Under the pieces are notes generated by a model. It was not told the origin of the DNA. It worked only from the letters and a program-made list of their open reading frames with translations, and made no database searches. Position numbers and translations under genes: made by a program. This document shows, piece by piece, positions 16,407-42,475 of a DNA stretch of 64,000 nt. The stretch comes from Candidatus Bathyarchaeota archaeon (GTDB lineage Archaea; Thermoproteota; Bathyarchaeia; Bathyarchaeales; WUQV01), in the NCBI GenBank assembly GCA_021158125.1, contig JAGGVF010000006.1, forward strand, positions 50,938 through 114,937, read 5' to 3'. Position 1 is the stretch's first letter; every line of letters starts with the position of its first letter.

Positions 16407-19400
16407 TGATGCTTCTTAAGAGGAATAAAACCCCAGAGCTGGAAAGTGATCAGAAATACGTGATGAATTGTTACTTGCGTCCTGGAGGGCGAGTATGTGT
16501 CGATGCTGGAGCAGGTACTGGAAAAACAACAGTGTTAATAGAGACTTTAGCAGAAACTGTACTTCGAGAGCTTCAAGGCAAGCCAGGTAATTTTAATCCT
16601 ATGGAAAGAATACTGGTAGTTTCTTTCGGGGTAGAAGCTTCGAGACAACTGAAATCAAGACTCAAAGAACGCTTAAGGGATCATGAGTCTGCAGGTGGCA
16701 TCTTACCAACGAATATTTGGCGATTTATTGAAACAGAATCTCATATCCAAACAATTGATGCTTTTCTTCAAGCACTTTTAAGGGAAATTGTTACTGAAAT
16801 TGGATTAAACCCCTCATTCGAGATATCTACGGGATTAGAGCAGGATAACCTTGTTGATGAAATCATAAACAAAATTCGCAATGACCCATCACTAGCACCT
16901 AAATGGTTTAGGCTCGAAAGAGCATTCCCCAACCTTGATTATTTAGAATATCCTCCTGAAAATCTTCGTGACATGATATGGAATACTCATCAAAAAGCAC
17001 GTGAATTTTGTCTTGATGTTAAAGAGGTCAAGAATCAACTTGTTTTTGCCGTTAAGAACTTAATTCATAAAGGGTTTGAACCTCCCTTCACAATAGATGC
17101 TCTCCAAAAGCTTGTGCAACAATTATCCAATAACACGTATGTCCTGACTTGTCCAGACCATCAGAAAGCGGCTATGATTGAACATGCTGAAGATGTTTAC
17201 AACTACAGCTTACAGCTCGCAAACGATTTTGGTGACTTATTAATAGCGTTCGATGAACAATACGATGCCATCTCGAAGAAAACGGGAAAATTAACTTACA
17301 TTGATGTTGCGTATTTAGTATGGCAGTATACCTTCAAGAAGGGAGGAAATGACTGGAAGACACGTTTGCAAAATAGGTTTGACCACATATTTGTAGATGA
17401 ATTTCAAGATACTAATTTTGTTCAATATGAGATAATAAAAAGTCTAATCCGTTCAGGACCACCTGAAAAACGGAATCATGTTATGTTTATCGGAGACTTG
17501 AAACAATCAATTTACCAATGGCGAAGTGCTGAGCCACAGATTTTTAGGGATCTTATCCTTTCTCTAAAACAAAAAACAGCCGCTGATTCGATCCCCGAAG
17601 GGATGACCTATGCTCCGCTCGTCTCAAATTTCCGAAGTCATCCAAAGCTTATTGACTTTTTCAATGGTGTCTTTTCGCAGTTATTCAAGGATAGGGCAAG
17701 AGGAGCAGTTTCAGGAGAAGTTCCTTATGAGGAATTAATAGCCAAGGTCGAACTGGCTTCTGATGATAATAAGCCCAGAGTACACATTTTAATAAATCCT
17801 GGTAGAACTGTGAGAGAATGGGTTGATTACGAAGCTCAAAAACTTGCTGCTATTATTCGAGGTATTCTCCAACCAAACTCAGGCATTCTTGTACATGAAG
17901 AAAACAAGACCAGACAACCATATGCTGGAGATATTGTCCTTTTGTTCCGCAGAAAAGAAAACATACCTAGGTACGTTAATGAATTAAGGTCTTCTGGAAT
18001 AAACTGTGCGATCCAGACCGACGTATCATTATTCGGTGAACCCGAAGTATCCTTGATTATTGATTTTCTAGATTGGCTAGCTAACCCTGATTCAAGAGAA
18101 TCAATCACTCGAATTTTACGCTCCCCTATAATAGCTCTAAGCGATAAAACTTTGAGATACCTTGCGAGCAAACGTTTCTTTTTAGTAAAGGCGTTAAATG
18201 ACTGGAAGCCAGAGTTCAATTTACCTGAAGAAGACAAAAGAAGACTTATTGAACTGCTGAAATTCCGTGAAGACTTGAGATGGGACAGAGAAGGCCCTAA
18301 AGCAGCTTTAATTGAACGGATTATAGCACATGGCTATTTTGATTCAGTCGTATTAACTTCGGAAGACGGATTGCAAGCCCAAGCCAACCTATGGATGCTG
18401 ATCGAAGTTGTTTCTTCATGGGAAGAAGAAGAGCTTTTGTCTTACCGAGATTTCATAAAGACACTAAAGGCACTCCGTGATAGAGCATATAGAGGAGTTG
18501 AAAAAGATTTTCCAAGAGCTATTCTTGCAGATGAAAAGACTAAAGATTCAGTAAAAGTAATGACAATTCATGCAGCTAAGGGGCTGGAATTTCCAATAGT
18601 TATAATACCTGAAAGTATTGTGCATGCTCGTGAATCAGTTAGAAATGAAAGAATTATAAGGAACCGAAGAAGCGGCATTATTTTAAGACCAAGAGCAGAA
18701 CACACTTATTTACCTTCCGATGTCCAGATAACAAATGTAAACAACAATAAACATATTTCCTGGGTCGGCAGAGGAGACGAAGAGGCAATACTTTGGCTAT
18801 CACCAGAAAGGAGCACTGAAACTGGGCTTTTTGTTACAGATAGCCCGATTCACCAAAATGTTAAAAATGATGTAGCTGAATTTTGGAGACTCTTATACGT
18901 CGCCGCCACCAGAGCAAAGGATCATCTAATCTTTTCTATCGGGAATGATGACCGATGGGAAAAATATGAATGGAATTCATGGATGCGATTTCTCCGAACC
19001 TCTTTGAATCTAATTGATGTTCAAGCTGCGAATGGGAACACAAGCAAAAAAGTTGAGTTGGCCTCAAAGCAAATCGAGATAGGTATCGAAGACCTCCCGA
19101 GCGTGCCTCCCCCAACTCCCGCCCCATTCTTAGATAAGCCCATTCCAAATGGCAAGAACGCCGAGTATAAAAGTGGTTGCCCTAGTTTTGTTCCTTCGCA
19201 GATTAATCCTTCAGAATTCCCAATTTTTCTAGAATGCCCAAGACGTTATCAATACGCAGCAATCTGGCGGACAAGCGGATTACGAGAATCTTCATTAACA
19301 GCAGATGCCAGCGGTGCACAACCTCCATGTACAAAAAGTGGAAAAATGTCTGCTGATGAATGGGGTGACCAAGTCCATAAGGCATTGAGACTCTGGGATT

Positions 19401-20008
19401 TTTCTTTAAGTTTCAGCTCCGATCAGCGACTCAAAGATTACATGGATCGAGTCGAACGTGTACTTGGGACAAGGGTTCGGGCTGAAATTGAGAAGGCATT
19501 AACAAACTTCTCGAAGCTGAATGTTGGAAAAATGGCGATAAATGCGGCTCGAGACGGTAGACCAATTCATAAGGAAGAAGAATTGCAAGCATTAATTTCA
19601 TGGAATTCTTCTTTTCCGCCAATTCTAGTTAGGGGCCGTTTTGATCTTTTGTTCCAGAATGAAAAAGGAGATTGGATTCTTGTGGACTTCAAAGCTGAGA
19701 AAATGCCACCTCCTAACTCTTTTAGGGACAGAATATACAGAGGGCAAATAAATGCATATGCATGGCTTATATTAAACGCATTAGGCATTAAAATAAAAAA
19801 GGCCTATTTAGCCTACGTTCATCCCAACGGAGCTGAAAAAGAAGTCATCCCTGATGAAACAGAGTTCGAAGAACAAGTAAAATCAAGCATCAATTCACTA
19901 ACGCTTGATCCACAAAAAGGTCTAAAAGCCACACCATCTTACAGCCCAGATGGACCTTGTTCTAATTGCCCATACAGCCGAAAGGTTGGTGGTCCATGCG
20001 AGAATTGA
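16406..20008 (+). CDS. AddA/UvrD-like superfamily-1 helicase with C-terminal PD-(D/E)xK Fe-S nuclease
   Basis: Walker A DAGAGTGKTT, FVDEFQDTN, YQWRSA, MTIHAAKGLEFP, YVAATRAKDHL. Nuclease GRFDLL...ILVDFKAEK, QINAYAW. Cys ligands ECPRRY and CSNCPY...GGPC. Confidence 0.85.
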   Translation: MMLLKRNKTPELESDQKYVMNCYLRPGGRVCVDAGAGTGKTTVLIETLAETVLRELQGKPGNFNPMERILVVSFGVEASRQLKSRLKERLRDHESAGGILPTNIWRFIETESHIQTIDAFLQALLREIVTEIGLNPSFEISTGLEQDNLVDEIINKIRNDPSLAPKWFRLERAFPNLDYLEYPPENLRDMIWNTHQKAREFCLDVKEVKNQLVFAVKNLIHKGFEPPFTIDALQKLVQQLSNNTYVLTCPDHQKAAMIEHAEDVYNYSLQLANDFGDLLIAFDEQYDAISKKTGKLTYIDVAYLVWQYTFKKGGNDWKTRLQNRFDHIFVDEFQDTNFVQYEIIKSLIRSGPPEKRNHVMFIGDLKQSIYQWRSAEPQIFRDLILSLKQKTAADSIPEGMTYAPLVSNFRSHPKLIDFFNGVFSQLFKDRARGAVSGEVPYEELIAKVELASDDNKPRVHILINPGRTVREWVDYEAQKLAAIIRGILQPNSGILVHEENKTRQPYAGDIVLLFRRKENIPRYVNELRSSGINCAIQTDVSLFGEPEVSLIIDFLDWLANPDSRESITRILRSPIIALSDKTLRYLASKRFFLVKALNDWKPEFNLPEEDKRRLIELLKFREDLRWDREGPKAALIERIIAHGYFDSVVLTSEDGLQAQANLWMLIEVVSSWEEEELLSYRDFIKTLKALRDRAYRGVEKDFPRAILADEKTKDSVKVMTIHAAKGLEFPIVIIPESIVHARESVRNERIIRNRRSGIILRPRAEHTYLPSDVQITNVNNNKHISWVGRGDEEAILWLSPERSTETGLFVTDSPIHQNVKNDVAEFWRLLYVAATRAKDHLIFSIGNDDRWEKYEWNSWMRFLRTSLNLIDVQAANGNTSKKVELASKQIEIGIEDLPSVPPPTPAPFLDKPIPNGKNAEYKSGCPSFVPSQINPSEFPIFLECPRRYQYAAIWRTSGLRESSLTADASGAQPPCTKSGKMSADEWGDQVHKALRLWDFSLSFSSDQRLKDYMDRVERVLGTRVRAEIEKALTNFSKLNVGKMAINAARDGRPIHKEEELQALISWNSSFPPILVRGRFDLLFQNEKGDWILVDFKAEKMPPPNSFRDRIYRGQINAYAWLILNALGIKIKKAYLAYVHPNGAEKEVIPDETEFEEQVKSSINSLTLDPQKGLKATPSYSPDGPCSNCPYSRKVGGPCEN

Positions 20009-26959: not shown

Positions 26960-27412
26960 ATGTCTAAAAAGAAAAAATATAGAATTTCCCAGTATAACAT
27001 TGAAGGAGAACAATTAGAGAGCTTCTTAGGTCCCCTTGAGACAAAAGTAATCGAAGCAGTATGGAATTCTAAGAAAAAACCAGTAACTGTTAGAGAAATC
27101 TATGAGACACTTAGGAAACAGACGAAAATTGCCTACACCACTGTTATGTCGACCATGAACAGACTGTATGAGAAAGGCTTGCTTGACAGACGAATTGAAA
27201 GGGGGAAAGGCGGACTGTATTATGTCTACTGGCCGAAAGTTGGAGAACAGAATTTCAAGAAGTCAGCCGTTCGGCAAGTCATTAGTAGCCTTCTTAGAAA
27301 CTTTGGAGAAATTGTTACGAGTTGTTTTATCGAGGAAGCGGCTACAAGTGAAGAAGAATTGAAGGCCCTAAGAGAACAACTTGAGAAAATGCTGAAGGAA
27401 AGGAGGAAGTGA
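26960..27412 (+). CDS. BlaI/MecI/CopY-family transcriptional repressor
   Basis: LGPLETKVIEAVWNSKKKPVTVREIYETLRKQTKIAYTTVMSTMNRLYEKGLL is the penicillinase-repressor wHTH pattern. Confidence 0.85.
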   Translation: MSKKKKYRISQYNIEGEQLESFLGPLETKVIEAVWNSKKKPVTVREIYETLRKQTKIAYTTVMSTMNRLYEKGLLDRRIERGKGGLYYVYWPKVGEQNFKKSAVRQVISSLLRNFGEIVTSCFIEEAATSEEELKALREQLEKMLKERRK

Positions 27413-27416
27413 AGGC

Positions 27417-29267
27417 GTGTCTTCAATCAGCTTGGAAAGCATCCTTACTCAGCTTTTTCAGCCTTACTTCTACTACTCAGTCATTCTTTTAACGATTTCA
27501 GCAGTATGTATTAAAATCCTTCTGAGACACTATCACTTCCTAGGAAGGAGAGCAAAAAGCATTATTTACTTAATTCCACTCATAATTCCAGTAGTAGTTA
27601 TGTCGTTCTTTCACCCTGAAGTAACAGCAAGAATGGTTAGTTCCGTCAAGTCCACTATTAAGTCAAACGGTGACAAATTTGTACTTGTAACAATTTTCTC
27701 AACCGAAACTCTTTCAATAACTGGAATCCTGTGCTTAATTGGCTTGACCCTAGGAACAGCCTTTTTTATAACCTTAATTTTCTTTGGCGATAAAATTGCT
27801 ACCAAACTCTTTCATATCATCATGCTTACACGTGACGAGTATCCATGGCTCCAGAAAAGGGTAATTGAGATGGCTAAAAAATTTAACCTTTCAACGCCGA
27901 AAATAGGAATTGTGGAAGACCTCAGACCAAACGCATTCACAATAGGATATGGCCGCAGAGCCATACTCGTCTTTTCAATAGGACTTTTAGACATCCTTAA
28001 CGAAGAAGAAGTGATTGCCGTTGCATCCCACGAATTAGCCCACCTCAAGAACCACGATTTCTTCTTTAAGACGTTATCCAACGCATTAAATATAATTTCA
28101 TTTTTCAATCCCTTTGCATACATCACAGCTTCGGCGGCTCAAAGAGAAAGAGAGATGCTTGCAGATGAGAGTGGATCCAAGCTCCTAAAGCATCCTGAAC
28201 TCCTAGCGAAGGCACTTACAAAAATACATAAAGTATTACAGACGTTTCCTAAAGAAAGCTTACTGGCTCGCTTGACCTCAAGCTTATTCCTTGTATCTCC
28301 TATCGCCCAGAAGTCCGAGATATTTGCAACTCATCCACATGTAAATCAAAGAGTAAGGAACATTGCCAGGTTGACATCAAGGAATAGTTTAGTGCACCGC
28401 AACGCAGCGGTCGCGGTCACACTATCTCTCTTAATAATTTTCGGAGGAATCACAACCAGCTATTATCTGATCAATATTCAAACATCGTTTATACAAAAAG
28501 ATTCACCTATAATTTCGTTGCACCAACCTACTGATAACTTCATGCTTAACCCAAAAAATGGAAACATTCTATTATCCATACCTACATACACCTTAAAGTA
28601 TGTGACCCGCCCCACCCCTAAGTGCATTCATGTTAAAGCAACAACAGGAACGATAATGTTATCTTTGCAAACTGAATTAGAAAATCTGGAAGCCAAATAC
28701 GATAGTATAGACGGAAATAGGCTAATTAACATTAGTAACTCTGAAATCGGTGCTTTTTGTTTAGAGAATTCGGCCTCCGCACCTCTTCCATACAGTTCCA
28801 CGCGACCACAAAGTAGACCTATTTATGGATTTAGAATTGGATTTGAACCCTTTCGGGTATTAGTCCTAGATTTTCACTTAAAGAAGATGGAAAGTTTGCT
28901 CGTTCAGGACAGGCATGGTCGTCATAGCTTAAATACGAGAGGATACACAGCCGTTGAGGCAGTAAACACTATAGAAAGGTACGGCTGGTTTAGACAGGCC
29001 TTCTACTTCAATGTAATAGTTTTTACGCTCGTAAACTTACGGGCCTATATAAACTTCTCATTAAGCACCAGCTTCCTAGTTGTTTTGGGATTGTCAACCA
29101 CTTGGATAGCATTATACACTTATTGGACTTTGGTTCGCAGAAGAGCATTTATCAACTGGAAAGGGCACAGAAACAAAACTGGCCTAAGCAAAATAACACA
29201 GAAGTTTTATCACAAGGCTAGGCGGACGATTGGTGCTCCAACTGCGATTTTCGGGGTTTACCAGTAA
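27417..29267 (+). CDS. BlaR1-like (M56/M48) membrane metalloprotease sensor with an unassigned extracytoplasmic domain
   Basis: Multiple TMs and SHELAHLKNHD (HExxH...D as in M56). About 200 aa of non-hydrophobic region between TM blocks. Immediately follows the blaI-like gene. Confidence 0.8.
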   Translation: MSSISLESILTQLFQPYFYYSVILLTISAVCIKILLRHYHFLGRRAKSIIYLIPLIIPVVVMSFFHPEVTARMVSSVKSTIKSNGDKFVLVTIFSTETLSITGILCLIGLTLGTAFFITLIFFGDKIATKLFHIIMLTRDEYPWLQKRVIEMAKKFNLSTPKIGIVEDLRPNAFTIGYGRRAILVFSIGLLDILNEEEVIAVASHELAHLKNHDFFFKTLSNALNIISFFNPFAYITASAAQREREMLADESGSKLLKHPELLAKALTKIHKVLQTFPKESLLARLTSSLFLVSPIAQKSEIFATHPHVNQRVRNIARLTSRNSLVHRNAAVAVTLSLLIIFGGITTSYYLINIQTSFIQKDSPIISLHQPTDNFMLNPKNGNILLSIPTYTLKYVTRPTPKCIHVKATTGTIMLSLQTELENLEAKYDSIDGNRLINISNSEIGAFCLENSASAPLPYSSTRPQSRPIYGFRIGFEPFRVLVLDFHLKKMESLLVQDRHGRHSLNTRGYTAVEAVNTIERYGWFRQAFYFNVIVFTLVNLRAYINFSLSTSFLVVLGLSTTWIALYTYWTLVRRRAFINWKGHRNKTGLSKITQKFYHKARRTIGAPTAIFGVYQ

Positions 29268-31384: not shown

Positions 31385-32827
31385 GTGGTGGCTATGTATG
31401 GAAGGCCTGACTGGTGGAGTTTCCTGCGGATTAGTAGTGATGGGTGGTCGAGTGAATTTCGTAGTGTAGATAGACTTTTGAGGCATTTGTCACGGAAGAC
31501 AGGGAGTATTGCTTCCAGGAACGCATATTGTTATATTCTGTGGAAGTTATGTGAAAGCGATTATGTCCAAAAGAGGTTGGGCTCAGAAATTAATCCTGAT
31601 CAACTTATTCTTAAGGCAAAGGAAGATCCCGAACTTATAACAAATATTGTCCAGGCATTTGGTGACGAGGTTTATCGAAAGAGATCTGTTAGATACGCTA
31701 ACCACAGGATTCAATTATTGAAAACTTTCTTCAAGGTCAACAAAGTCGACTCTAAGTTGGATCTAAATTTGTATTCGCAACCAACACGAAGCCGCAAAAG
31801 ACCAGAGTATATTCCCACGCTAGAAGAAGCATTAAGGATGGCTGAGGTTTCTGGAAATCTTAGAGATAGGCTTATCATTGAATTTCTGCTCTATACTGGT
31901 TTGCGAAACTCTACCCTTAGAGCACTAGTGTACAATGAGCATTATCCAGAACCTCTTCTGAAAGAGTATACAATTAAAAGGGAGCTAGAAAGGGGCGAAG
32001 AGTGCATTGTTATAATCGTCCATGAAATTATGAAAGAGCGAGTGCCAAATGCGTGTAAAAATCGAATATTCTACTATACTTTCATTCCACCAAAAGTTAC
32101 AGCCGACCTTCACGCCTATATCAGAGAAAGAGAGGAAAAATACGGCCCCCTCCGTGATGATGATCCAATTTTTCCTACGGGAAATAGAAGGATACCGCTA
32201 AGTGTAAGACTCCAAACCCCGATTTCATCACGTGAACTGCAGGAAATAGTTAAAAAGGCGGCAAAGAGAGCTGGAGTAGAACATGAGCGTTATGTATATC
32301 CACACTGTCTCCGGAAGACTTATGAAAGCTTTCTACGTAATCAACCCAATGATGTGAAGTTAGACATCAAGGAACGGGAATTCCTTTTCGGTCACGTTTT
32401 GCCGGGCAGCCAAGACACCTACTTCGATAGGACAAAAATTGAAGAAATGCGAGCAAAATATGCTAGATTAAACTTCGAACCGATTGTTATTGAAACGGAG
32501 GAACGGGTAGTAAAACAGGAAGATCTTCAGTCATTCCTTGAGCAAGGCTGGAAATTTGTGGCTGCATTGTCGAACGGCAAAGTCGTAATTTCTAGGAAAG
32601 TCAAAAGACAGGCCAAAAAAGTGCATATAACACCTGAGTTTGACAGAGACTCATGCACAGCTCAGAATACTCCACTATCAACCAAAGAAAGGGAACATAA
32701 CAATCTTCCAAGAGCTTCGCAAGAAAATGAAGCTACTTTTACCGACAATCAGAAATTAGATTTAGAAGAATCCCTTACTAAAAAAACGAGGCAAAAAAAG
32801 CTCCAGGAGTTTCTTTCGCCTGATTAA
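31385..32827 (+). CDS. tyrosine recombinase/integrase (long archaeal type), paralog A
   Basis: GLRNSTLRAL (Arg), HCLRKTYESFL (HxxR), GHVLPGSQDTYFD (His...Tyr). Confidence 0.85.
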   Translation: MVAMYGRPDWWSFLRISSDGWSSEFRSVDRLLRHLSRKTGSIASRNAYCYILWKLCESDYVQKRLGSEINPDQLILKAKEDPELITNIVQAFGDEVYRKRSVRYANHRIQLLKTFFKVNKVDSKLDLNLYSQPTRSRKRPEYIPTLEEALRMAEVSGNLRDRLIIEFLLYTGLRNSTLRALVYNEHYPEPLLKEYTIKRELERGEECIVIIVHEIMKERVPNACKNRIFYYTFIPPKVTADLHAYIREREEKYGPLRDDDPIFPTGNRRIPLSVRLQTPISSRELQEIVKKAAKRAGVEHERYVYPHCLRKTYESFLRNQPNDVKLDIKEREFLFGHVLPGSQDTYFDRTKIEEMRAKYARLNFEPIVIETEERVVKQEDLQSFLEQGWKFVAALSNGKVVISRKVKRQAKKVHITPEFDRDSCTAQNTPLSTKEREHNNLPRASQENEATFTDNQKLDLEESLTKKTRQKKLQEFLSPD

Positions 32828-32837
32828 CGGGCTTGTG

Positions 32838-34076
32838 TTATATTTTTTGTCTATATTTTCTCATCTGGACGTATTCCTCTATCACTTTATCTGGGTCAAG
32901 TCCCGTACCCTCAAATGCTTTTGCAACAGCCATTCTCAAAATCTTGAATTTATTCTCCACAACGACTCTTCCGAAGCTGAGTCTCGCGTATTCTGCCCTT
33001 AAGTATTCCACTTTAGATTTATCGAAGTAGGTGTCTTGGCTGCCCGGCAGGATGTGGCCCATAAAGAATTCCTGAATTTTTGGGTCTAATCGTCCACCGT
33101 CTATGAGCTCGCTATGCAGGACCGTTTCAAATGCCTTACGAAGACTATGTGGAGTTATATATTTCCACTGCTGAATTCCAGCTTTCTTTGCGGCTGATTT
33201 AACTATAAACTGGACTTGTCTTGATGTCAGGATTTTTGATCTCCGTTTGCTTCTTTCAATTTGGTTATAGTCTGAGGAAAAAAGAGGCTCATGACTTAAT
33301 ATTTCTCCATATTTCTCTTCTCTCTCACGCAAATAAAGCCTAATTGCCTCAGTTGCTTCATCACATGTGAAAGTAAAGTAGGAGATATTACGTTTACACG
33401 CGTATGGATCTACAAGTTTCATCTCAGGATAAACTGGAATAAGGAGGTTACTAACACCTTTTGACAGCTCTTCTTCAATATCTCTGATAAGCAACGCTCG
33501 TAAAGTAGAGTTTCTGATACCGCTACTGTAGAGTGTTAGAATTATAGCTCTATCTCTTAATGAAGCCGCACAGTCAGCCATTGCATAAATTTCATTTTTC
33601 TTTGGAATATACTCGGGAACTTTTCTATATCTCGCTGGCATGTAATATCGTTCGACTTCAAGTCCCTTGGATCCTTTAAAACCGTTTACTCTAAAAAATG
33701 TAGTTAGAAGCTCGATTATGTTGTTCAGGTATCTTACACTATAACTACCATTACTACTGTAATTGTATTCATCTACATAGTCTTGAATGAGTTTTTCAAT
33801 TGTACTTTTAGGAAGTGTAATGAGTTTATCTGGATTCGCTCCGGCATAGATGCAGAAGGAGTAAAGTCTGTACAAGTAGGCTCTTCGTGAAGCCTCACTT
33901 CTACATTTTCTTGAAAGGTACCTAAGCAATAGATCCACGCTTTGATATTCGCTTCTCCATCCGTTAACCTTCAGGAAGCTAAAGCATTTGCCTGACTCTC
34001 TTGGTTGACACTGACTAACTAAGTGCTTGCCTTTATTTAGTACTCTAGTTGTTTGCATAAAAAATGATACATTCAA
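32838..34076 (-). CDS. tyrosine recombinase/integrase, paralog B (convergent with A)
   Basis: GIRNSTLRAL, HSLRKAFETVL, GHILPGSQDTYFD. The N-terminal WRSEYQSVDLLLRYLSRK parallels paralog A. Confidence 0.85.
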   Translation of the reverse strand: MNVSFFMQTTRVLNKGKHLVSQCQPRESGKCFSFLKVNGWRSEYQSVDLLLRYLSRKCRSEASRRAYLYRLYSFCIYAGANPDKLITLPKSTIEKLIQDYVDEYNYSSNGSYSVRYLNNIIELLTTFFRVNGFKGSKGLEVERYYMPARYRKVPEYIPKKNEIYAMADCAASLRDRAIILTLYSSGIRNSTLRALLIRDIEEELSKGVSNLLIPVYPEMKLVDPYACKRNISYFTFTCDEATEAIRLYLREREEKYGEILSHEPLFSSDYNQIERSKRRSKILTSRQVQFIVKSAAKKAGIQQWKYITPHSLRKAFETVLHSELIDGGRLDPKIQEFFMGHILPGSQDTYFDKSKVEYLRAEYARLSFGRVVVENKFKILRMAVAKAFEGTGLDPDKVIEEYVQMRKYRQKI

Positions 34077-34078
34077 AT

Positions 34079-35257
34079 TTATGCACCTTTACACTGAGAA
34101 TATTTCGTAATCTTTGTTTGATCGGATTCGGCTATTTTTTCAATGGAATTTCTTTCTATTACTTCAAGGATTTTTGCTGGGAAATATTTGATTTCTTTGT
34201 ATCTATTCTGTCTGTATTTAAATTCCCTTTCATCTCTTTGTTCCAAATTTTGTATTGTTGCCAAAAATTCTTCGAAGATAGGCTCTAGCAATCTTAGGAA
34301 ACCATGTCCTTTCTCGATAAACGTATTTACGTCAATAATACCTGTTGTAGCTATGTCATACCATACCTTCAAATGGATTGCGTATTCTGTTAACCTTACA
34401 ACATAAAGTCCTCTTTTTGGAACTGTACGCTTTATTTCTCTCAACACGTTAGGTGCCACGCCAGCATTTGGTATAATTACATATCCGATACTTGCGTTCA
34501 GACCATCCATGTATTCTGATACTTTCCTTATTTTTTCTCTAATAGTGTTGACATTTTCAGTTGTGACCTCGTCTGCAACTATCTTTATTCTGTGATTGTT
34601 AATGAAAACGTCTGGTTGGTACTGGCCTATCTTTTCCTTGAACTTGATTTCTCCGTTGTTTGGCCAGAAGATTGTTGTAATTTCCTTTACGCTTTGTTCG
34701 TGTACTGCTTGTGCAGTTCTTGCTTCTGCTAGTTCCTCTAACTGTACTCGAAGCGGGTCTCTTTCCAGATCTTTTATCTTTTGTTTTAAGGCTTTTATTT
34801 CTTCATATAATTGGGTGTGCTCTTTTTGTTCTATTCTTTCGAAGGCGGATTCTAGCTTAGTTATTACGTTGGCTAGTCTGTTTACGGTTTCGTTTTGGAT
34901 CTTGGCATTTTTGTCGGTTATCTCTTTAAAAGCGTTTGCTGTAATTTCGCTTAGCTTTGTGTATGTCCCTTTTAGTAGGTTTACGGCACTCTGAAGTCTC
35001 TCTGAGTATTCGTTAAGGAGCTTTTCACGGAGTTCCCTTGAATCCCTATCTTGCTTTTCTCTAAGCTTTTCAATTTTCTCCTCAAGGCCTTCAAGTATTT
35101 TTATCCGCTCTTCTAATTTTGCTAGTTGCGTCAAGGTTGCGTTATTATTACTGGTTAGTTTTGGAACTTTTGGAACTTTTGGAAGTAACCCCTTTCTCCT
35201 GAGGATGTAGTATATCGTCGATCCAAGTATTATTAAAAGGATTATCTCCAGCAACAT
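34079..35257 (-). CDS. membrane-anchored coiled-coil protein with a possible RmuC/PD-(D/E)xK-like C-terminal domain
   Basis: N-terminal TM, about 170 aa of coiled coil, then YQPDVFINNHRIKIVADEVTT (PD...DEV). The functional assignment is weak. Confidence 0.35.
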   Translation of the reverse strand: MLLEIILLIILGSTIYYILRRKGLLPKVPKVPKLTSNNNATLTQLAKLEERIKILEGLEEKIEKLREKQDRDSRELREKLLNEYSERLQSAVNLLKGTYTKLSEITANAFKEITDKNAKIQNETVNRLANVITKLESAFERIEQKEHTQLYEEIKALKQKIKDLERDPLRVQLEELAEARTAQAVHEQSVKEITTIFWPNNGEIKFKEKIGQYQPDVFINNHRIKIVADEVTTENVNTIREKIRKVSEYMDGLNASIGYVIIPNAGVAPNVLREIKRTVPKRGLYVVRLTEYAIHLKVWYDIATTGIIDVNTFIEKGHGFLRLLEPIFEEFLATIQNLEQRDEREFKYRQNRYKEIKYFPAKILEVIERNSIEKIAESDQTKITKYSQCKGA

Positions 35258-35380: not shown

Positions 35381-35542
35381 ATGGCTAAGAAAACATGGTC
35401 AACAAGGCTAGACGAGGAAACGGAAAGAAAAGTAAGAAACCTTATCGAGAAAACAGGATTGAAGGAAGCAGAAGTCCTACGAAGACTAATAATAATAGGA
35501 CTAAAAAACGTAAAAGAACCAGCAGACCTCTTAAAAATATAA
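35381..35542 (+). CDS. ribbon-helix-helix (CopG-like) protein
   Basis: MAKKTWSTRLDEETERKVRNLIEKTGLKEAEVLRRLIIIGLKNV is a typical RHH pattern. Below the track cutoff. Confidence 0.55.
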   Translation: MAKKTWSTRLDEETERKVRNLIEKTGLKEAEVLRRLIIIGLKNVKEPADLLKI

Positions 35543-35622
35543 CTTTATTATCTTAACTTAGCTATGATTACTACTACACTTATCCATTTTCAATTATTGA
35601 GCTGTAAAACTTAAAAGTAAAT

Positions 35623-35868
35623 TTGTCCTATTGCCATAATGAAGCCAAAATGAGTAAAGGCATAAAATACATGGTACTAATCGTTCAATATAAGGAGAAG
35701 GATGAAAAAATCATTGATGAAATTCTAAAAAAATTTGAGGGCAGTATCAATGCCAAAAATGGTCAAGTTTTGTGTCCATACAAGGGTTATGAAAGGCGGC
35801 TAATTACAGCTCTTGAAAGTATACTAGAGCTAACAAGGACAGCCAACAAAATTAGTGGTAACATTTAA
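35623..35868 (+). CDS. small hypothetical protein
   Basis: 81-codon ORF; an internal ATG at about 35650 may be the start. No motif. Confidence 0.35.
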   Translation: MSYCHNEAKMSKGIKYMVLIVQYKEKDEKIIDEILKKFEGSINAKNGQVLCPYKGYERRLITALESILELTRTANKISGNI

Positions 35869-35909: not shown

Positions 35910-36599
35910 TTGAGAGAGCGAATAGCGAATAAATGTCTTTTTTGTAAGGCTGATTTGGAAAACAACGAAGTATGCCCTGAATGTGGACTAAGTCAAAACG
36001 AAAGAACCCTTGTTGATTGGGAAATTAAAAAATTACTTGATTTAGAAGTAATTATTGTTGAACCAATACTTAACTTGGAGGAGCAGTTAGGCCCTACGGG
36101 GTTAGATTTGAGACTTGATGGCGTATTTAGAGAACTTCGACATACACGAAGGGGATTTATTGATTTATCATCCGAAATACCTGAACATGAATTTTATGAT
36201 ACCAAAATTTTAGAAATAGATAAAGGACAGCATTACTATATACAGCCGGGAAAGTTTGTCCTAGGTCAGACTTTTGAGTATGTTGCGTTACCTGAGTTCA
36301 TCTTAGGAGAACTTGACGGAAGGAGTAGCTGGAGTAAATCGGGGCTTGAAGTTCATGCGACAGCTTCCAAAATTGCACCAGGATTTAAAGGGCATATTAC
36401 CTTTGAACTAAAAAATTCTGGAGAAATGCCAGTCAAGTTGCAACCCCTCTCACGAGTAGCATGTCTAACTTTTAGGGTCACTAAAAGACCTCAAAAAACT
36501 TACAAAGGCAAATTTCAATTTCAAGTAAAAATTAAACCGCCAAAACCTGATGATGATGTGAAAAGACTAGATTCATACTTCAAGCAGAACGTGGGTTAA
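35910..36599 (+). CDS. dCTP deaminase/dUTPase-superfamily protein with N-terminal zinc ribbon
   Basis: CLFCKADLENNEVCPECG, then Dcd-like LGPTGLDLRLDG, IQPGKFVLGQTFEYVALP, DGRSSWSKSGLEVH, APGFKGHITFELKNSG. Confidence 0.8.
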   Translation: MRERIANKCLFCKADLENNEVCPECGLSQNERTLVDWEIKKLLDLEVIIVEPILNLEEQLGPTGLDLRLDGVFRELRHTRRGFIDLSSEIPEHEFYDTKILEIDKGQHYYIQPGKFVLGQTFEYVALPEFILGELDGRSSWSKSGLEVHATASKIAPGFKGHITFELKNSGEMPVKLQPLSRVACLTFRVTKRPQKTYKGKFQFQVKIKPPKPDDDVKRLDSYFKQNVG

Positions 36600-37830
36600 G
36601 GACTGGCTCGAATTTTCTTCGTAGGTATGTCAGACGAATACTATCCATAAGGATATAGTTAAATTCTCTTTCAAATTTGACCTTTTTATCATTTGAATAT
36701 TGATTAAGCAACTCCGCCTTTGCTTTTTCAGCAATATTAAATAGAATTTTGAAGTTATCTGTATATGGTACCAGCATCCTTAATCTTCGCGTAGCTTTCT
36801 CTTCCGCTTCTGCATCTGGCTTATACGTACATCCAGCGAGTTGTCTTGATGCTTGGTTAATAATTTCCGGCAGATGTTCGATGCTTTCCTTAGGAATCAA
36901 TGTTCTTTCTTGCGGGATTTTTTGAAAAATCGGAGCATACTGTTCTTCCATTGTTAGTTCATTCTCTTTTAACCATTCTTGCATTGCTTTCAGTCGTTCG
37001 TCCCAAGAAGGATGATCAGGGGAAATACGAATTTCTTTACGGTAGTAACCAAGAAGGGTTCTAGTGGGAAATACTGGTCCAATATAGCATGTTGCAATGT
37101 AATCAGCTAAATATTCTTTTGCATACCGGTACTTTATTAATGGCGTAACGTAATTCGAAACTGAGAAAGGGAAGATGTCTTGGAGCGAATAGTATCGATT
37201 TACTATATTCCACAGTTGCTCTTCTATTATGTGCCCCAACTCATGAATTACTAGTGGCCAATCAGTCACATTATTAGTAAGGGCAGGGGGCACGAATATT
37301 ATCCAAAAGAATGGATAATTCGAATCAATAAGCTCAGAAGTCGCTGGTAAGGAACTGAACAGTCTGTAGAAACCTTGTGAGAAGTTTGTAGTGGAAAGTT
37401 CACGCCCAGTAACCAAGAGATACCTTATATCGCTAATGTTGAGATCATCCACTACGAGTTCGATAAAATAATACATCTCCAATGGAACTTCACGTGATTG
37501 TCTTGTGATCATCATTATTTCAAACATAAATTCTTCTAAAATTCTCAGAATCAGCTCTGAACGATGTATTCGCGTCTCGATATCATCTACATTTCGAATT
37601 TCCTCAATAACTAATTTTAGCTCTTCTTTAAGAGAGTAAATAATACCTCGAACGAGCCTTTTGAACTCATTCTCAGATCGCCCGTATAACTTAGAACGTT
37701 CAAGTTCTTCTTCAATGTCTCTTAATATTCTCTTATAGATCTCCGCTCTTTCAGCCACTAAGTCATATTGCGGGGACAAGTCTGAGATACCCATAGTATA
37801 GTTTTTCCTCTTCTCTAAATGTTGATTCAA
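36580..37830 (-). CDS. predicted zinc metallopeptidase (HExxH) with N-terminal helical domain
   Basis: WPLVIHELGHIIEE plus downstream EYLADYIATCYIGPVF (a Glu third-ligand-like motif). Family not assigned. Confidence 0.55.
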   Translation of the reverse strand: MNQHLEKRKNYTMGISDLSPQYDLVAERAEIYKRILRDIEEELERSKLYGRSENEFKRLVRGIIYSLKEELKLVIEEIRNVDDIETRIHRSELILRILEEFMFEIMMITRQSREVPLEMYYFIELVVDDLNISDIRYLLVTGRELSTTNFSQGFYRLFSSLPATSELIDSNYPFFWIIFVPPALTNNVTDWPLVIHELGHIIEEQLWNIVNRYYSLQDIFPFSVSNYVTPLIKYRYAKEYLADYIATCYIGPVFPTRTLLGYYRKEIRISPDHPSWDERLKAMQEWLKENELTMEEQYAPIFQKIPQERTLIPKESIEHLPEIINQASRQLAGCTYKPDAEAEEKATRRLRMLVPYTDNFKILFNIAEKAKAELLNQYSNDKKVKFEREFNYILMDSIRLTYLRRKFEPVLNPRSA

Positions 37831-38290
37831 TATCTTTATCTAGACAAATCAGAAAATCCTTCACATTATTTATGTCTCTTTCATCAACTGTTCTCCCTTC
37901 CTTTATCTTAGAGAAGACTTCAAGGGCTAATTTAAATCCACTTATATATTTTTCAAGTTTTCCTTTATCAATAGGTTCTCTTCTTTTCTTCGTCAGAATA
38001 TTAAGGAAAATAGGACTCACATAGTTGCATATACTTGTTTCTATTTTATTCAAGGCCTCTAAAGACTTGGTACATAATTCTAATGCATCCGCAGTATACT
38101 TTTCCATATTCTTGCTGTGAAACTTTGCTTTATATAAGCCCAAGGCCATCAACGCATTTGAGATTTTACTCCTTAAACCTATAACACTATGGACAATCTC
38201 ATAAAGTACCGTAAACGTTTTATCGCGATCCCCGCTCAAAAGGCTTAACGCCACGGAGTTAAGATACTCCTTTTCCATCATCTCTCCCAT
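37763..38290 (-). CDS. hypothetical all-helical protein, overlapping partner of the HExxH protein
   Basis: 175-codon ORF whose 3' end overlaps the start region of 36580-37830. Confidence 0.45.
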   Translation of the reverse strand: MGEMMEKEYLNSVALSLLSGDRDKTFTVLYEIVHSVIGLRSKISNALMALGLYKAKFHSKNMEKYTADALELCTKSLEALNKIETSICNYVSPIFLNILTKKRREPIDKGKLEKYISGFKLALEVFSKIKEGRTVDERDINNVKDFLICLDKDIESTFREEEKLYYGYLRLVPAI

Positions 38291-38347: not shown

Positions 38348-39175
38348 TTGCAGAAAATCTTTTTAGCAAAAAACTTTTATACAGATAAAAGGGGAGAAAT
38401 GCACAAGAAAAAGATTGATGCTTTTGACATATTTGCAGCAGTTTTTAGCCAAAAACGAACAGTCTCTGCTATTAGGTTATTAATACTGAAAACCATCTAT
38501 AAAAGTAAAGAAGGAACGCTAAAATTTTCCGACATTCTAAAGGCTATCCAGTCATATAAAGATAGGAATTATTCATCACAGAGACTTACTTATGACCTAA
38601 ATGTTCTCAAAGAAAATGCATTAATAGACCAAACTTCTGATGGAAATTACTCAATAACAGATTATGGATGTTATATTCTAGATGTGTACGACAAAATGCG
38701 ACGAGAGCTAGAGGATATAGGAACAAATGAGAAACCCGGATTTGTTGCCGGGGCTAACGGATTTATAATTGCAAGAAATTTTGACTATAGGATTTTGGGG
38801 CAGGAATTATGGGAACTGCCATTTTTTAGAAAAGTGCCAAGTAGGGAACAGAATAAAATAAACTTGAAATGGAACGATTCAAATGATAATTTCGAATCTG
38901 ACATTGAAATATCAAGTGATGGTAGTTTCACTATACAGGTAGTGATTTATGTCGATGCATTACCCTCAATTGAAGGGGCATTCAAAGAGGATTTAGAAAA
39001 AACTGCGAAGTGGCATAATGCGGCAAAAGGCATAGTTCAAGCAATTCTTTACTATATAGAACGGACAGCACACAGATTATGGAATAATTGCAGAGTAGAT
39101 ATTATCTTCGGACCGGATTCTTATCCCATAAATCTATATGCTGGGGTGAAAGAGGCTGAGGAAAATACAAATTAA
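38348..39175 (+). CDS. wHTH protein with an unassigned ~150-aa C-terminal domain; pAgo-associated
   Basis: RTVSAIRLLILKTIYKSKEGTLKFSDILKAI...LTYDLNVLKENALIDQTSDGNYSITDYG fits an ArsR-like wHTH. The likely start is the ATG at 38399, after GGGGAG. The stop lies inside the stop-free 5' extension of the pAgo frame. Confidence 0.6.
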   Translation: MQKIFLAKNFYTDKRGEMHKKKIDAFDIFAAVFSQKRTVSAIRLLILKTIYKSKEGTLKFSDILKAIQSYKDRNYSSQRLTYDLNVLKENALIDQTSDGNYSITDYGCYILDVYDKMRRELEDIGTNEKPGFVAGANGFIIARNFDYRILGQELWELPFFRKVPSREQNKINLKWNDSNDNFESDIEISSDGSFTIQVVIYVDALPSIEGAFKEDLEKTAKWHNAAKGIVQAILYYIERTAHRLWNNCRVDIIFGPDSYPINLYAGVKEAEENTN

Positions 39176-39335: not shown

Positions 39336-41486
39336 ATGAGTATTTTTTGTGTTCCGGTGAACCCTGCAAGTCTAAGAGAAACAATATCTGTTTGTACTAC
39401 TGATGGTGTCGAATTCTACTGGACTAAAGAAGAGCAGGCTGAAAATCTTCTAACTAATGATGAGAAATCACGAAGAATAATAGAGCAAATCATGGCAAAA
39501 GCTATTTCAAAACAGCAACTTGCAAGGGGATGGTTTGTTGAGTCATATAAGAGGGTCTATTACTGGTCATTTACACTCACAGAGCAACTGTCTATGGGAC
39601 TTATGGATGTCTATCCTGGGTTTATATTTAAACCATATGTCTACGACGATGGATCTTGTGCGGTTATGATAGACCCTAAATTTAAGTTTGTCCCACGCAA
39701 GACTTTAAGAGACATTATTGATCAAATGTTAATGGAAGGAAAAACTCATCATGAAATTATATCGCTCTTCGAAAATGAAATAGTTATTGATGCTTGCCCT
39801 GTAATTGATTGCCCCTTCAGAAAAGATCCATCGAGCAATTGCCATTTAAAGGGGGCCGGAAAAAGGCGTATTCTAAGTCGACTTGACTTTAATTTGAAAC
39901 CGTCAATCGCAAAATTTGGAAACTTAATAACCTACCATAAACAGAAATGCCCAAATAATGGGCGGTTAGGTAGGTTAATCGAGGATAAACCACCACTAGC
40001 GATAGTGGAATCCAAGAAATCTGGTAAATTATTTGAATTCCCGCTTGAACGTTTAAGAAAAGAACTCAAACTGCATGAACTTGATAAATTTGGCAGAATT
40101 TTAGTGACCAAGTATATTCGGCCCTCGATGAAAGAGCGATGGTATCTCACAAGAGGGTTTTTAGCCTATCTTGATGGTATAAGGATAGGGCGGTTGCCTC
40201 CACTACGACTTGTAAAACATTTCGTTGATGTAGGAAAATCACCAGAAAAACCATGGTATCACTATACCGTTTTTGAAGATATGCCACTCATGTTCGCTAA
40301 TCGAAAAATAGGCTTTGACCCTTTTTCCGCATTAGAAGCCTATGGCCCATACGATTTAACCGGAAAACATAGACGTAAATTTAACAAGTTGCGGATAATT
40401 ATTTATAATTTTTCCGATAAACTCACGAAGAATGATATTGAAAGGTTCTATAGAGATTTGGTTAATGGTTTCTCCTATAGACCAAGTTATAGCGGAATTA
40501 AAAGGATTTTCAGATTAGAAGTTCCAGCATTTGGAAAGGGAACTTATAGACGCGATACATTTGATGTAAGAATCCCCTTCCTTAATAAGAATGAAGCTCT
40601 TATAGTTTTAGCAGTAGCACCGGAAAATGGCAACAGAAAAATTAAACAATATAAATTTTTTAAGCAAGAACTTACTCGTTTGGGGATTCCTTGTCAGTTC
40701 ATCCTTGATAAAAATATCCAATTGGCAAACTCAATCTCAAAATATTCGGGATTTATGAAAAACCTTGCACTTTGCATATACCATAAAGTCGGGGGAGTGG
40801 CTTGGATCCTTAGCAAACCAGTTGGTAACAATAAATGTTTTGTTGGTTTAGATATGATTTCTAGACATAATAGAATTTATATGTCATTGCATGTATTCAA
40901 CTCCTATGGATTATGGCTAGGCGGGGATATATTATCAGTAAAAAAAGAGTTTTATCCACAAGTTTTAGTAGATAAGGTAAATGAAGCGATAGACATATAC
41001 ACTCGAGAAGAACGTATGACGCCAGAAGAATTGATATTACATAAAAATGGAGAAGTGTGGCCTAACATAGAGTTAAAACCTCTAATTGACGGCCTTACAG
41101 TCAAGAGCAGGATTGTTAGTATTAAAAAAACAGGAATCCCAAGAGTATATAATGTGCTTGATGAGGATTATATTTCAGACCGGGGGCTTTGCGTACAAAT
41201 CGATAAAAATGAAGCGTTACTAGTAACAAGCGGGCCCCCGCACCAAATTCAAGGCTCTCAAAAACCATTGACGGTTGAAATTAAATATCCAAAGGGAAAC
41301 TGGCCTCTTCTAAGAGAGACGTGCAAAGAAATTTTCTATCTGTCATTACTATATGGAGGATACTTGTTAGCTGTAACGTCAAGACCTATTACAACCCATT
41401 TAGCGAGTGCGGCGGTTAGTTTAGCGGCAAATTACGATATTAATGAAGTGAGCGAAAAGTTATCAAAGAAGGCTTGGTTCATTTAG
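39336..41486 (+). CDS. prokaryotic Argonaute (long pAgo; catalytic tetrad apparently degenerate)
   Basis: MID pocket KIKQYKFFKQELTRLGIPCQFI. PIWI motifs CFVGLDMISRH, ELILHKNGEV (N where active pAgos have D), TSRPITTHLASAAV (S where D/H is expected). The frame is open from 39150. Confidence 0.85.
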   Translation: MSIFCVPVNPASLRETISVCTTDGVEFYWTKEEQAENLLTNDEKSRRIIEQIMAKAISKQQLARGWFVESYKRVYYWSFTLTEQLSMGLMDVYPGFIFKPYVYDDGSCAVMIDPKFKFVPRKTLRDIIDQMLMEGKTHHEIISLFENEIVIDACPVIDCPFRKDPSSNCHLKGAGKRRILSRLDFNLKPSIAKFGNLITYHKQKCPNNGRLGRLIEDKPPLAIVESKKSGKLFEFPLERLRKELKLHELDKFGRILVTKYIRPSMKERWYLTRGFLAYLDGIRIGRLPPLRLVKHFVDVGKSPEKPWYHYTVFEDMPLMFANRKIGFDPFSALEAYGPYDLTGKHRRKFNKLRIIIYNFSDKLTKNDIERFYRDLVNGFSYRPSYSGIKRIFRLEVPAFGKGTYRRDTFDVRIPFLNKNEALIVLAVAPENGNRKIKQYKFFKQELTRLGIPCQFILDKNIQLANSISKYSGFMKNLALCIYHKVGGVAWILSKPVGNNKCFVGLDMISRHNRIYMSLHVFNSYGLWLGGDILSVKKEFYPQVLVDKVNEAIDIYTREERMTPEELILHKNGEVWPNIELKPLIDGLTVKSRIVSIKKTGIPRVYNVLDEDYISDRGLCVQIDKNEALLVTSGPPHQIQGSQKPLTVEIKYPKGNWPLLRETCKEIFYLSLLYGGYLLAVTSRPITTHLASAAVSLAANYDINEVSEKLSKKAWFI

Positions 41487-41500
41487 ATAACTTTCGTAAG

Positions 41501-42475
41501 TCAATCTATTCCAAGCTTTGGTACACATGCAAGATACATTCTTCTCAGTTCTCTCCTATCAATATGGTGATATACATCTATCGCTTCGCTTCTTTTGTCG
41601 CCTCTTAGTTCTTTTACATATTCTCTTGGCATTCCATTCCTAAGTAACCATGTTGTAAACCAATGCCTAAAACAGTGCGGAGTCAAATGATCCTCTGGCT
41701 TTTTACTCTTTGAATTATGTAAGCCAACCTTCTCTGCATACTTAGTTACAACACGATATACACCGTGCCTTTTCAGTCTTTGTCCACGTCTCCCTATGAA
41801 CAAAGCTTTACAGCTGGGAGCCACTTTCCAGTTCTTCCTAGCATTATGCCACCTATGCAATACACGTGCACATTCGTCGTCAAAGAACACTATTAAATTG
41901 CTTCTCTTAGGATGGGGCTTTAATCGGATGCTTTGTTCCTTCCAATCAATGTCATCTACATCTATATTAATCAGTTCCTTTCTACGAATGCCAGTCTTCG
42001 CTAACAAAGTGACAATAGCCTTATCCCTAGGATCCAATATGGAATTTATTAGCATTCTCATCTGTTCAACTGAAATAAGCTTTCTCTCCGAAACCAGATT
42101 ACGTCTCTCCGCCTTGTACTGACGAATATAGCGTTTCCTAAAAGGTAACACAGGATTCTTCTCTACGAACCCTTCATAAGCTAAATAATCGTAGAAACTG
42201 GATAGAGCCGAAAAATAATTTTCCAGAGTCTTGATTGCGTAGCCCTTATCATTAATCAGGAATTTTAGTAACTTTTTCAACCCATTCCTATCTAGACTAA
42301 GAAAGGATAGCCCATTTTGTTTGAGGAATCTTGAAGTAATTCTCAGTATAGATTTATAGCTCCTAACGCTTTCTTCGGAAAAATTTCTTAACTTGCAGTC
42401 GACAAGGAAGTCTTCAATAAGTTTAGCATCATCAACTTCGCCTTCTAGTAAATTTACTTGCTTCATCCTATCCAT
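41501..42475 (-). CDS. tyrosine recombinase (XerC/D-like integrase) of the element
   Basis: GIRRKELINI (Arg), HCFRHWFTTWLL (HxxR), RGD...IDVYHH (Tyr). Adjacent to tRNA-Ser and the att repeat. Confidence 0.9.
   Translation of the reverse strand: MDRMKQVNLLEGEVDDAKLIEDFLVDCKLRNFSEESVRSYKSILRITSRFLKQNGLSFLSLDRNGLKKLLKFLINDKGYAIKTLENYFSALSSFYDYLAYEGFVEKNPVLPFRKRYIRQYKAERRNLVSERKLISVEQMRMLINSILDPRDKAIVTLLAKTGIRRKELINIDVDDIDWKEQSIRLKPHPKRSNLIVFFDDECARVLHRWHNARKNWKVAPSCKALFIGRRGQRLKRHGVYRVVTKYAEKVGLHNSKSKKPEDHLTPHCFRHWFTTWLLRNGMPREYVKELRGDKRSEAIDVYHHIDRRELRRMYLACVPKLGID

Follow-up and report, generated by a model that had tools for sequence, protein, structure and literature searches.

Dcd-type dCTP deaminases belong to the trimeric dUTPase superfamily and are characterised by homotrimeric assembly and feedback inhibition by dTTP. 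Dcd-fold enzymes that deaminate dCTP include monofunctional dCTP deaminases, such as Escherichia coli Dcd (1XS1), and bifunctional Dcd-Dut enzymes, such as M. jannaschii MJ0430, an archaeal precedent for this family, and M. tuberculosis Rv0321. An aspartate that contacts the nucleotide 3′-OH and the catalytic water (D128 in E. coli, D119 in M. tuberculosis) is conserved throughout the dUTPase superfamily and is indispensable for dUTP hydrolysis; the position of E. coli R126 is occupied by arginine in monofunctional Dcd and by an aromatic residue in bifunctional Dcd-Dut (PMC3360063). The established anti-phage dCTP deaminases, among them AvcD of Vibrio cholerae, deplete dCTP upon infection and confer phage resistance; they belong to an unrelated fold and consist of a zinc-dependent cytidine deaminase (CDA) domain and an N-terminal kinase/P-loop domain (Tal et al., 2021/2022). 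The subject of this report is ZnR-Dcd, a 229-aa Dcd-fold protein with an N-terminal four-cysteine zinc ribbon that is encoded at positions 35910..36599 (plus strand) of a 64,000-nucleotide stretch of the genome of a Candidatus Bathyarchaeota archaeon (assembly GCA_021158125.1, contig JAGGVF010000006.1), hereafter the window. Within a three-gene cassette that also encodes a putative zinc metallopeptidase (hereafter pep) and a small protein (hereafter small), ZnR-Dcd is predicted to act as the enzyme or effector.

In the window, the Dcd gene is convergent with pep (36580..37830, minus strand), the 3′ ends of the two genes overlapping by 20 nt, and small (37763..38290, minus strand) lies upstream of pep in the same operon and overlaps it. 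The same trio occurs with other ribbon-containing Dcds, namely P0016 (44% identity; loci L005/6), P0014 (L007), P0013 (L008/9), P0002 (L010) and P0007 (L011/12), and also their ribbon-less relatives P0022 (L016/17) and P0030 (L018/19); a search from the side of the peptidase yielded 23 metagenome loci and two genomes. According to hidden Markov model (HMM) scans of the fetched loci, small, pep and Dcd occur together in essentially all of the 40+ loci where the contig reaches. In most of these, Dcd is convergent with pep and small, with touching or overlapping 3′ ends; in the Acidimicrobiia locus L015, the order is small-pep-Dcd, Dcd coming after pep on the same strand; and in L046/47 (P0046), Dcd, a 136-aa gene and a 491-aa pep, which matches the family profile with E = 6e-59, are co-directional, with overlapping open reading frames (ORFs). 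The canonical Dcd P0055, by contrast, is found in a nusG-rplK-dcd-x-tmk context without these partners. A linkage that persists from archaea to bacteria and through three different gene orders leaves little doubt that Dcd, pep and small constitute one functional unit. The cassette is a previously undescribed, cross-domain combination of a Dcd-fold deaminase, a new metallopeptidase family and a small protein; searches of the literature turned up no multi-gene system built on the Dcd fold, although subscription journals were mostly outside their coverage, so that an earlier description is possible.

The ORF of ZnR-Dcd is intact, with a TTG start codon preceded, 6 nt upstream, by a Shine-Dalgarno-like motif (AGAGGGA), and the identical 229-aa product (P0001) was called by public gene callers on four metagenome contigs. 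The catalytic domain (36009..36545, plus strand; residues 34-212), delimited on the basis of alignments to 1XS1 and 2QXX, matches Pfam PF22769 (E = 2.5e-32; 112.5 bits against a cut-off of 27), the equivalog-level NCBIfam model TIGR02274, ‘dCTP deaminase’ (143.5 bits, the curated cut-off being 92.8; residues 34-212 aligned to positions 2-179 of the 180 in the profile), and the PHROG dCTP deaminase family (E = 1e-36), and the closest relatives in the PDB are the Dcd proteins of M. tuberculosis and E. coli (E ~1e-23). An earlier note on this DNA had described the product as a 229-aa Dcd-fold protein with an N-terminal CxxC...CxxC ribbon, and all the motifs that it quoted are present. By the HMM cut-offs and the deamination residues considered below, the protein belongs to the Dcd family, minus one residue that defines the superfamily.

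The zinc-ribbon segment (35934..35984, plus strand) has the pattern C9-x2-C12-x9-C22-x2-C25 and is joined to the N-terminus of the Dcd domain by a clade motif, SQxERTLVDWEI. The four cysteines are retained in the alignment of the 15 closest homologs (P0002-P0016); they are also found in the Dehalococcoidia and the L008-type loci and are missing from the other trio-linked Dcds. The ribbon marks a sub-branch or grade of the Dcd clade rather than the cassette as a whole because, in a neighbour-joining tree, the ribbon-containing sequences grouped as one clade in just 17 of 100 bootstraps. The proposal of the earlier note that a ribbon-Dcd fusion would be a distinct archaeal architecture stands insofar as the ribbon is real; the unit, however, is the three-gene cassette, and the ribbon, confined to a sub-branch, occurs in bacteria as well. 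One ribbon-containing Dcd (P0014; L007, 8001-9170) was called as a 389-aa protein with an extension of approximately 160 aa ahead of the ribbon, which is either a fused domain or the product of a mis-called start. At the other end of ZnR-Dcd, the C-terminal tail KPPKPDDDVKRLDSYFKQNVG (36534..36596, plus strand) carries a KPPKPDxDL motif that is present in most trio-linked Dcds and not in the canonical Dcds P0055 and P0058; conceivably, this tail could be a docking or cleavage site.

The active site was compared by tabulating the relevant residues of 45 members of the Dcd clade in E. coli numbering. S139/S140 of ZnR-Dcd correspond to S111/S112, K143 to R115, H149 to H121, K154 to R126, A156 to D128 and E166 to E138. 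The positions of S111, S/T112, R/K115, H121 and the catalytic E138 are kept in all 45 members, which argues that the deamination chemistry is under purifying selection. K143 represents a conservative Arg-to-Lys change at position 115, where lysine is typical of the branch to which the window protein belongs, and the C-terminal Y..Q..Q lid motif is canonical. ZnR-Dcd is accordingly best viewed as a putative, catalytically competent dCTP deaminase, with the substrate assigned by homology. The superfamily aspartate, however, is replaced by Ala156 (IAPGF for IDPGF/W). Approximately 10 of the 45 tabulated proteins, among them members of several trio-linked branches, have A, S, T or E here; such recurrent loss was not seen among the canonical Dcds in the tabulation. 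Two residues before Ala156, ZnR-Dcd has Lys154, which is not aromatic. With Ala156 and Lys154 in place of the aspartate and the aromatic residue, the dUTP product would be expected to persist, with no formation of dUMP; in other words, ZnR-Dcd is predicted to deaminate dCTP but not to hydrolyse the resulting dUTP. On the strength of these two substitutions, assignment to the bifunctional Dcd-Dut class, which shares the fold, was rejected. Conservation of the catalytic residues, on which the earlier reading of this gene had been made to depend, thus holds for the deamination residues and fails for the superfamily aspartate.

Compared with canonical Dcd, as exemplified by the E. coli enzyme, the window protein has the same fold and HMM family, the same Ser-Ser/His/Glu138 constellation, the Y..Q..Q lid and a basic residue at the R126 position, and differs in the addition of the ribbon and the KPPKPDxDL tail, in the presence of Lys for R115 and Ala for Asp128, in being obligately tied to the two partners of the cassette, and in being rare, patchily distributed, horizontally transferred and located outside a nucleotide-metabolism operon. 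With the anti-phage deaminases, it shares the predicted chemistry, the predicted depletion of dCTP and the status of an accessory gene in variable regions. The folds are nevertheless unrelated, and the known defensive enzymes act as single proteins or, in the case of AvcID, as a protein with a small RNA. Membership in this group was rejected given that only models of the Dcd/dUTPase family match ZnR-Dcd, that its N-terminus is a ribbon of approximately 25 aa and not a kinase, and that no PADLOC model recognises it. The kinship with these deaminases that had been suggested at the outset could not be upheld, and the likeness appears to be functional at most, an analogy rather than membership.

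The peptidase-like partner is a soluble protein of 416 aa when read from the first start codon (404 aa in the public call, which starts at 37794), with no transmembrane segment detected; its homologs are approximately 390-424 aa long in most loci and reach 516 aa in divergent ones. It contains the motifs HELGH (196-200), E239-x2-AD243 and HPSWxER (273-279), and residues W191, H196, E197, H200, E239, D243, H273 and R279 are invariant in 46 diverse representatives. The family is a small one: of 1.84 billion protein cluster representatives, 112 match it at E <= 1e-3. An AlphaFold2 model built from the 46-sequence alignment (pLDDT 92.8, pTM 0.90; a model from a 5-sequence alignment, with a pLDDT of 41, was discarded) consists of three long N-terminal helices, an alpha/beta core in which the HExxH motif lies on a helix, and a helical domain at the C-terminus. 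A Foldseek comparison of this model with the PDB found no structural neighbour (best E ~1, TM-score < 0.2), and a search of the family profile against PDB sequences returned nothing but coiled-coil noise. The motif series HExxH ... E..AD ... (T/S)HPxWxxR is nonetheless the one typical of M48 peptidases such as HtpX, BepA, Ste24 and Oma1. Sub-threshold matches to PF01435 were obtained for 9 of the 46 members, the gathering threshold of Pfam M48 not being reached; a phage ‘Peptidase M48’ model was among the best BFVD matches, at a non-significant E = 0.5; and hhalign aligned the THPxWxxR motif to the THP...R of an M56/M48 protein encoded elsewhere in the window, in a local match that was likewise not significant. 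Matches to M78 (PF06114) were weak and limited to 2 of the 46 members (best E = 0.0068). Since pep differs from the M48 peptidases in remaining below the Pfam thresholds for M48 and M78, in having no solved look-alike and in combining solubility with long N- and C-terminal helical domains, it is best described as a putative, divergent soluble M48-like gluzincin (a zinc metallopeptidase) of new overall architecture.

The second partner, a soluble protein of 171-175 aa in the window, ranges from approximately 136 to 178 aa across loci and is typically a helical protein of about 160 aa; its position is kept and homology is detectable in L005, L007, L008, L010, L014 and L021-L042. No Pfam match was obtained with the single protein or the alignment, no helix-turn-helix (HTH) was found, and neither small nor pep matched any PADLOC, NCBIfam or PHROG model. 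In a Dehalococcoidales metagenome-assembled genome (MAG; CAZZAC010000003.1, L014, 7980-11391) and in L041, an insertion sequence (IS) with a 349-aa transposase gene splits pep and leaves Dcd and small intact, which makes this copy a natural knockout of the peptidase partner.

Taken together, these features tentatively suggest, at somewhat less than even odds, that the cassette is an accessory, protease-gated nucleotide-poisoning conflict system of the antiviral or abortive-infection type. Under such a scheme, the deaminase would be kept inactive, with the small protein or the extended C-terminal tail of the enzyme itself as the plausible inhibitor, until a trigger is sensed and the peptidase performs a proteolytic step that releases it; sensing and gating would fall to the peptidase and the small protein, the cleaved target being perhaps the latter or else the KPPKPDxDL tail. 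The released deaminase would then convert dCTP to dUTP without clean-up, such that replication would be starved of dCTP and flooded with dUTP. Uracil in the template stalls archaeal family B polymerases, products derived from dUTP inhibit them, and the flood of dUTP could be especially harmful to these uracil-sensing enzymes. Precedents for the gating exist in BlaR1/BlaI, IrrE/DdrO and CapP/CapH, protease-gated switches in which a dedicated zinc peptidase cleaves a small partner and thereby turns a response on. The concept is similar, but pep shows no detectable homology to these peptidases, small lacks an HTH, and the genes are mostly convergent rather than divergent. The ImmA/IrrE (M78) anti-repressors were considered as a possible affiliation and rejected, given the two weak M78 matches and the lack of an HTH repressor partner.

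The known hosts of the cassette are Bathyarchaeota, Dehalococcoidales and Acidimicrobiia. Ribbon-containing Dcds form approximately 15 clusters, and a pattern search found pep in 2 of 185,579 species genomes. In the neighbour-joining tree, the group that includes the window protein is the sister of a Dehalococcoidia group (94 of 100 bootstraps), with another archaeal group outside; this position of an archaeal group next to a bacterial one implies that the whole cassette was probably transferred between domains. A scan of viral contigs detected none that carries pep or the cassette, which fits a host system yet is uninformative.

A separate dUTPase-superfamily enzyme of the Dut type, approximately 147 aa long, is widespread in Bathyarchaeota (486 clusters, including some on megabase-scale contigs). 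This protein lacks the deaminase glutamate and keeps the aspartate; among solved structures, 9LN0 and 8Y1W come closest to it. Examples are P0229, P0247 and P0267 as well as the products of L008 7012-7464, L009 1950-2402 and L028 2882-3349; these NCBI and JGI proteins, like 9LN0 and 8Y1W, are all named ‘dCTP deaminase’. Because the deaminase glutamate is missing and the dUTPase aspartate is kept, the ~147-aa proteins look like dUTPases that have probably been misnamed. Several proteins encoded in the window are identical, or identical over at least 90% of their residues, to MCD62424xx proteins of an NCBI MAG of Candidatus Bathyarchaeota; no accession of the MCD624xxxx series was present in the ten NCBI clusters of the Dut-type family that were inspected.

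The cassette of the window lies in a variable region. The GC content dips to 0.35-0.37 over 34-41 kb, against 0.40-0.44, and this segment is bracketed by three recombinases: two adjacent, convergent tyrosine recombinases of 480 and 412 aa (31385-34076) and a XerC/D-like integrase, also a tyrosine recombinase, of 324 aa (41501-42475). A search for att-type direct repeats around these genes returned only short, chance-level pairs; no tRNA gene was found, and no Rfam family was detected within 33-43 kb. The status of this island as an integrated element, which had been taken for granted, is accordingly less certain: the recombinases and the GC dip speak for it, and the lack of att-like repeats and of a tRNA gene speaks against it. 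The neighbours reported previously, namely a ribbon-helix-helix (RHH)-like gene, a metallopeptidase pair and a prokaryotic Argonaute (pAgo), all exist, the metallopeptidase pair being pep and small, the obligate partners of Dcd. Directly upstream of Dcd, on the same strand and within 35381-35868, are the RHH/CopG-like ORF (53 aa; 35381-35542, plus strand) and an ORF of 72-81 aa; conservation of these two is limited to near-identical contigs, and the cassettes of other lineages do not include them. A gene located between the recombinases and the cassette (34079-35257, minus strand) encodes a 392-aa protein that combines a long coiled coil with a membrane anchor at its N-terminus, MLLEIILLIILGSTIYYIL, and that gives weak PADLOC matches to LeoA and ZorA. 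Just outside the island, at 26960-29267, there is a BlaI/BlaR1-like pair that consists of a Penicillinase_R repressor and a 616-aa M56/M48 sensor peptidase. Two adjacent, very large ORFs of the window (1104 and 1200 aa; 13092-20008) are annotated as no more than hypothetical in the NCBI MAG.

On the other side of the cassette, across a 57-bp spacer and divergent from the small-pep operon, is a gene for a 275-aa winged-HTH (wHTH)-like protein (38348-39175, plus strand), followed by a 716-aa pAgo (39336-41486, plus strand; PADLOC pAgo, E = 3.7e-54) in which Pfam detected no PIWI domain. The catalytic tetrad of this pAgo is incomplete (GLD...KNG...H), and that of its homolog in L010 is substituted differently (GLS...RDG...H); for this reason, the window pAgo is probably non-slicing. 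The five-gene block is common to the window and L010 (62% identity for Dcd, 41% for pep, 39% for small, 47% for wHTH and 50% for pAgo), and L020 has a trio-type Dcd beside a pAgo that is unrelated (22% identity) and has another partner. In total, a pAgo of at least two unrelated types, with an incomplete tetrad in all three cases, adjoins the cassette or a trio-type Dcd in only these three loci, and none is present at most trio loci. Consistent co-operonic association of an effector with the pAgo is therefore not observed, and assignment to the SPARTA, SPARSA or long-B pAgo-operon types was rejected. The adjacency of the wHTH-pAgo pair and the trio could reflect ordinary defence-island clustering or hint at coupling within one system, the latter being unlikely because most cassettes have no pAgo nearby.

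The evidence for an accessory, mobile character of the cassette includes its rarity, its cross-domain spread, the IS inside one copy of pep, the faster divergence of the trio than of its flanks and the GC dip in the window, to which can be added the contrast between the 486 clusters of the separate Dut-type enzyme and the approximately 15 clusters of ribbon-containing Dcds. A role in conflict is suggested by the genes found near some cassettes: besides pAgo, these are IS110 or other integrases together with an SNF2/NOV_C helicase (L005/6), a UPF0175/DUF3368 pair and a large helicase (L007), DDE transposases (L018 and L024) and a GmrSD-type (DUF262) type IV restriction gene (L021, 4456-6105) approximately 1.1 kb from the cassette of P0003. 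Several observations nevertheless weigh against a nucleotide-poisoning conflict system. Of 14 independent lineages, only approximately 4 have a recognised defence gene within reach, and none of the three cassette proteins is matched by a PADLOC model. At L008/9, a locus with neither recombinases nor pAgo, the trio adjoins Dut and the same PNP_UDP_1-PhoU-DUF429-PolD-small genes that flank the window island; the Dehalococcoidia copies, in at least five lineages, are always located between nadD and gyrB, near dnaA; and the cassette of L025 adjoins folE. Syntenic chromosomal orthologs in relatives, which the earlier note had named, together with the absence of another dcd from the genome, as refuting its proposal, thus do exist in part, in the shared flank of L009 and in the nadD-gyrB position. 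Furthermore, because the superfamily aspartate also contacts the nucleotide 3′-OH, its loss could impair or alter substrate binding and sugar recognition rather than merely abolish dUTPase activity. The proteolytic gating, finally, is purely conjectural, and the small protein has no recognisable fold. On balance, the weight of evidence favours an accessory cassette that is able to reside stably in the chromosome.

These same observations bear on the alternatives, the most serious of which, although it too is unlikely, is that ribbon-containing Dcd is the ordinary dCTP deaminase of its lineage that supplies dUTP to Dut and thymidylate synthase, with the partners either regulating nucleotide metabolism or merely linked. 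The equivalog-level score would be expected of such an enzyme, and a Dut-type gene, its natural metabolic partner, is divergently oriented beside Dcd in L008, L009, L028, L033 and L034; the 64-kb window contains no second Dcd or Dut, and both the position shared by the window and L009, with flanking proteins 53-67% identical, and the nadD-trio-gyrB arrangement kept in at least five Dehalococcoidia lineages have the appearance of chromosomal residence. However, the trio itself diverges faster than that flank (50%, 38% and 28% identity between the window and L009), the cassette is very rare and patchy next to the core Dut family of the phylum, and its distribution crosses domains with evidence of transfer. 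To this are added the IS-disrupted partner gene in one genome, the integrase, transposase, pAgo or GmrSD genes near the cassettes of many lineages, and the recurrent loss of an otherwise invariant aspartate that is not seen in canonical Dcd; to our knowledge, no housekeeping Dcd requires a dedicated peptidase. In line with the earlier note, the gene belongs to a rare accessory clade rather than to canonical dcd and resides in a variable region beside a pAgo, whereas the canonical P0055 has its nusG-rplK and tmk neighbourhood. The mobility that argues against housekeeping would suit an addiction module of the toxin-antitoxin (TA) kind, in which the deaminase would be the toxin, the small protein its neutraliser and the peptidase the agent that degrades or processes the antitoxin, the whole stabilising mobile DNA with no dedicated antiviral role. 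The cassette is compact, autonomous and horizontally moving, it occurs beside integrases, transposases and other TA pairs, and its ORF overlaps suggest tight stoichiometric expression. Such a module is nonetheless improbable: long-term stable residence at conserved chromosomal positions is not typical of modules that serve addiction alone, three components including a dedicated peptidase of about 400 aa would be unusual for TA systems, and the boundary between TA and abortive infection is in any case blurred, so that this explanation overlaps with a conflict system.

Equally improbable is that the enzyme acts on a non-canonical substrate, be it CTP, a modified dCTP specific to a virus or the cytosines of a nucleic acid that the ribbon binds, the loss of the aspartate then reflecting altered sugar recognition. 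Zinc ribbons are typical nucleic acid-binding or protein-binding additions, the lost aspartate normally touches the deoxyribose 3′-OH at a position that varies only in this clade, and R115 is changed to lysine in the branch of the window; yet the other residues of the nucleotide pocket and of deamination, as well as the Y..Q lid motif, are canonical, and most trio-linked Dcds keep the aspartate and have no ribbon, so that neither feature defines the system. Least probable of all is that the cassette is the effector or executioner arm of the neighbouring pAgo in a five-gene system, in which pAgo and wHTH would recognise invader nucleic acid, trigger the peptidase and unleash the dCTP-to-dUTP deaminase, amounting to guide-directed, protease-gated immunity in Bathyarchaeia and bacteria. 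The Dcd-pep-small-wHTH-pAgo block common to the window and L010 (39-62% identity), the divergence of the two operons from a 57-bp spacer and the third, unrelated pAgo of L020 are all compatible with this possibility, as are the incomplete tetrads, given that pAgos of this kind usually rely on partner effectors, as in SPARTA and the long-B systems. But most cassette loci have no pAgo, which makes the cassette autonomous, a large survey of pAgo neighbourhoods mentions no deaminase, dUTPase or peptidase partner, and adjacency within defence islands without functional coupling is common. A protease-gated nucleotide-poisoning system, tentative as it is, thus remains the preferred interpretation of the cassette.

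Whatever the role of the cassette, the partner of approximately 400 aa defines what appears to be a new metallopeptidase family, with a confident predicted structure that has no solved neighbour. If the function is regulated housekeeping, ZnR-Dcd would be the first known case of a dCTP deaminase with its own dedicated protease, a smaller result that would still reveal a new form of regulation in nucleotide metabolism. If the cassette is a defence system, attack on the dCTP pool would have arisen on two or more occasions from enzymes of unrelated folds, the CDA fold and the Dcd/dUTPase fold. The latter case would differ in its logic, with a dedicated peptidase and a small protein taking the place of the fused kinase, and in its predicted product, uncleared dUTP. 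In archaea, where replicative polymerases stall on uracil, such dUTP would be an especially potent poison, and the cassette would be among the very few candidate immune systems found mainly in uncultivated subsurface archaea, the Bathyarchaeia, with evidence of transfer from an archaeon to a bacterium.

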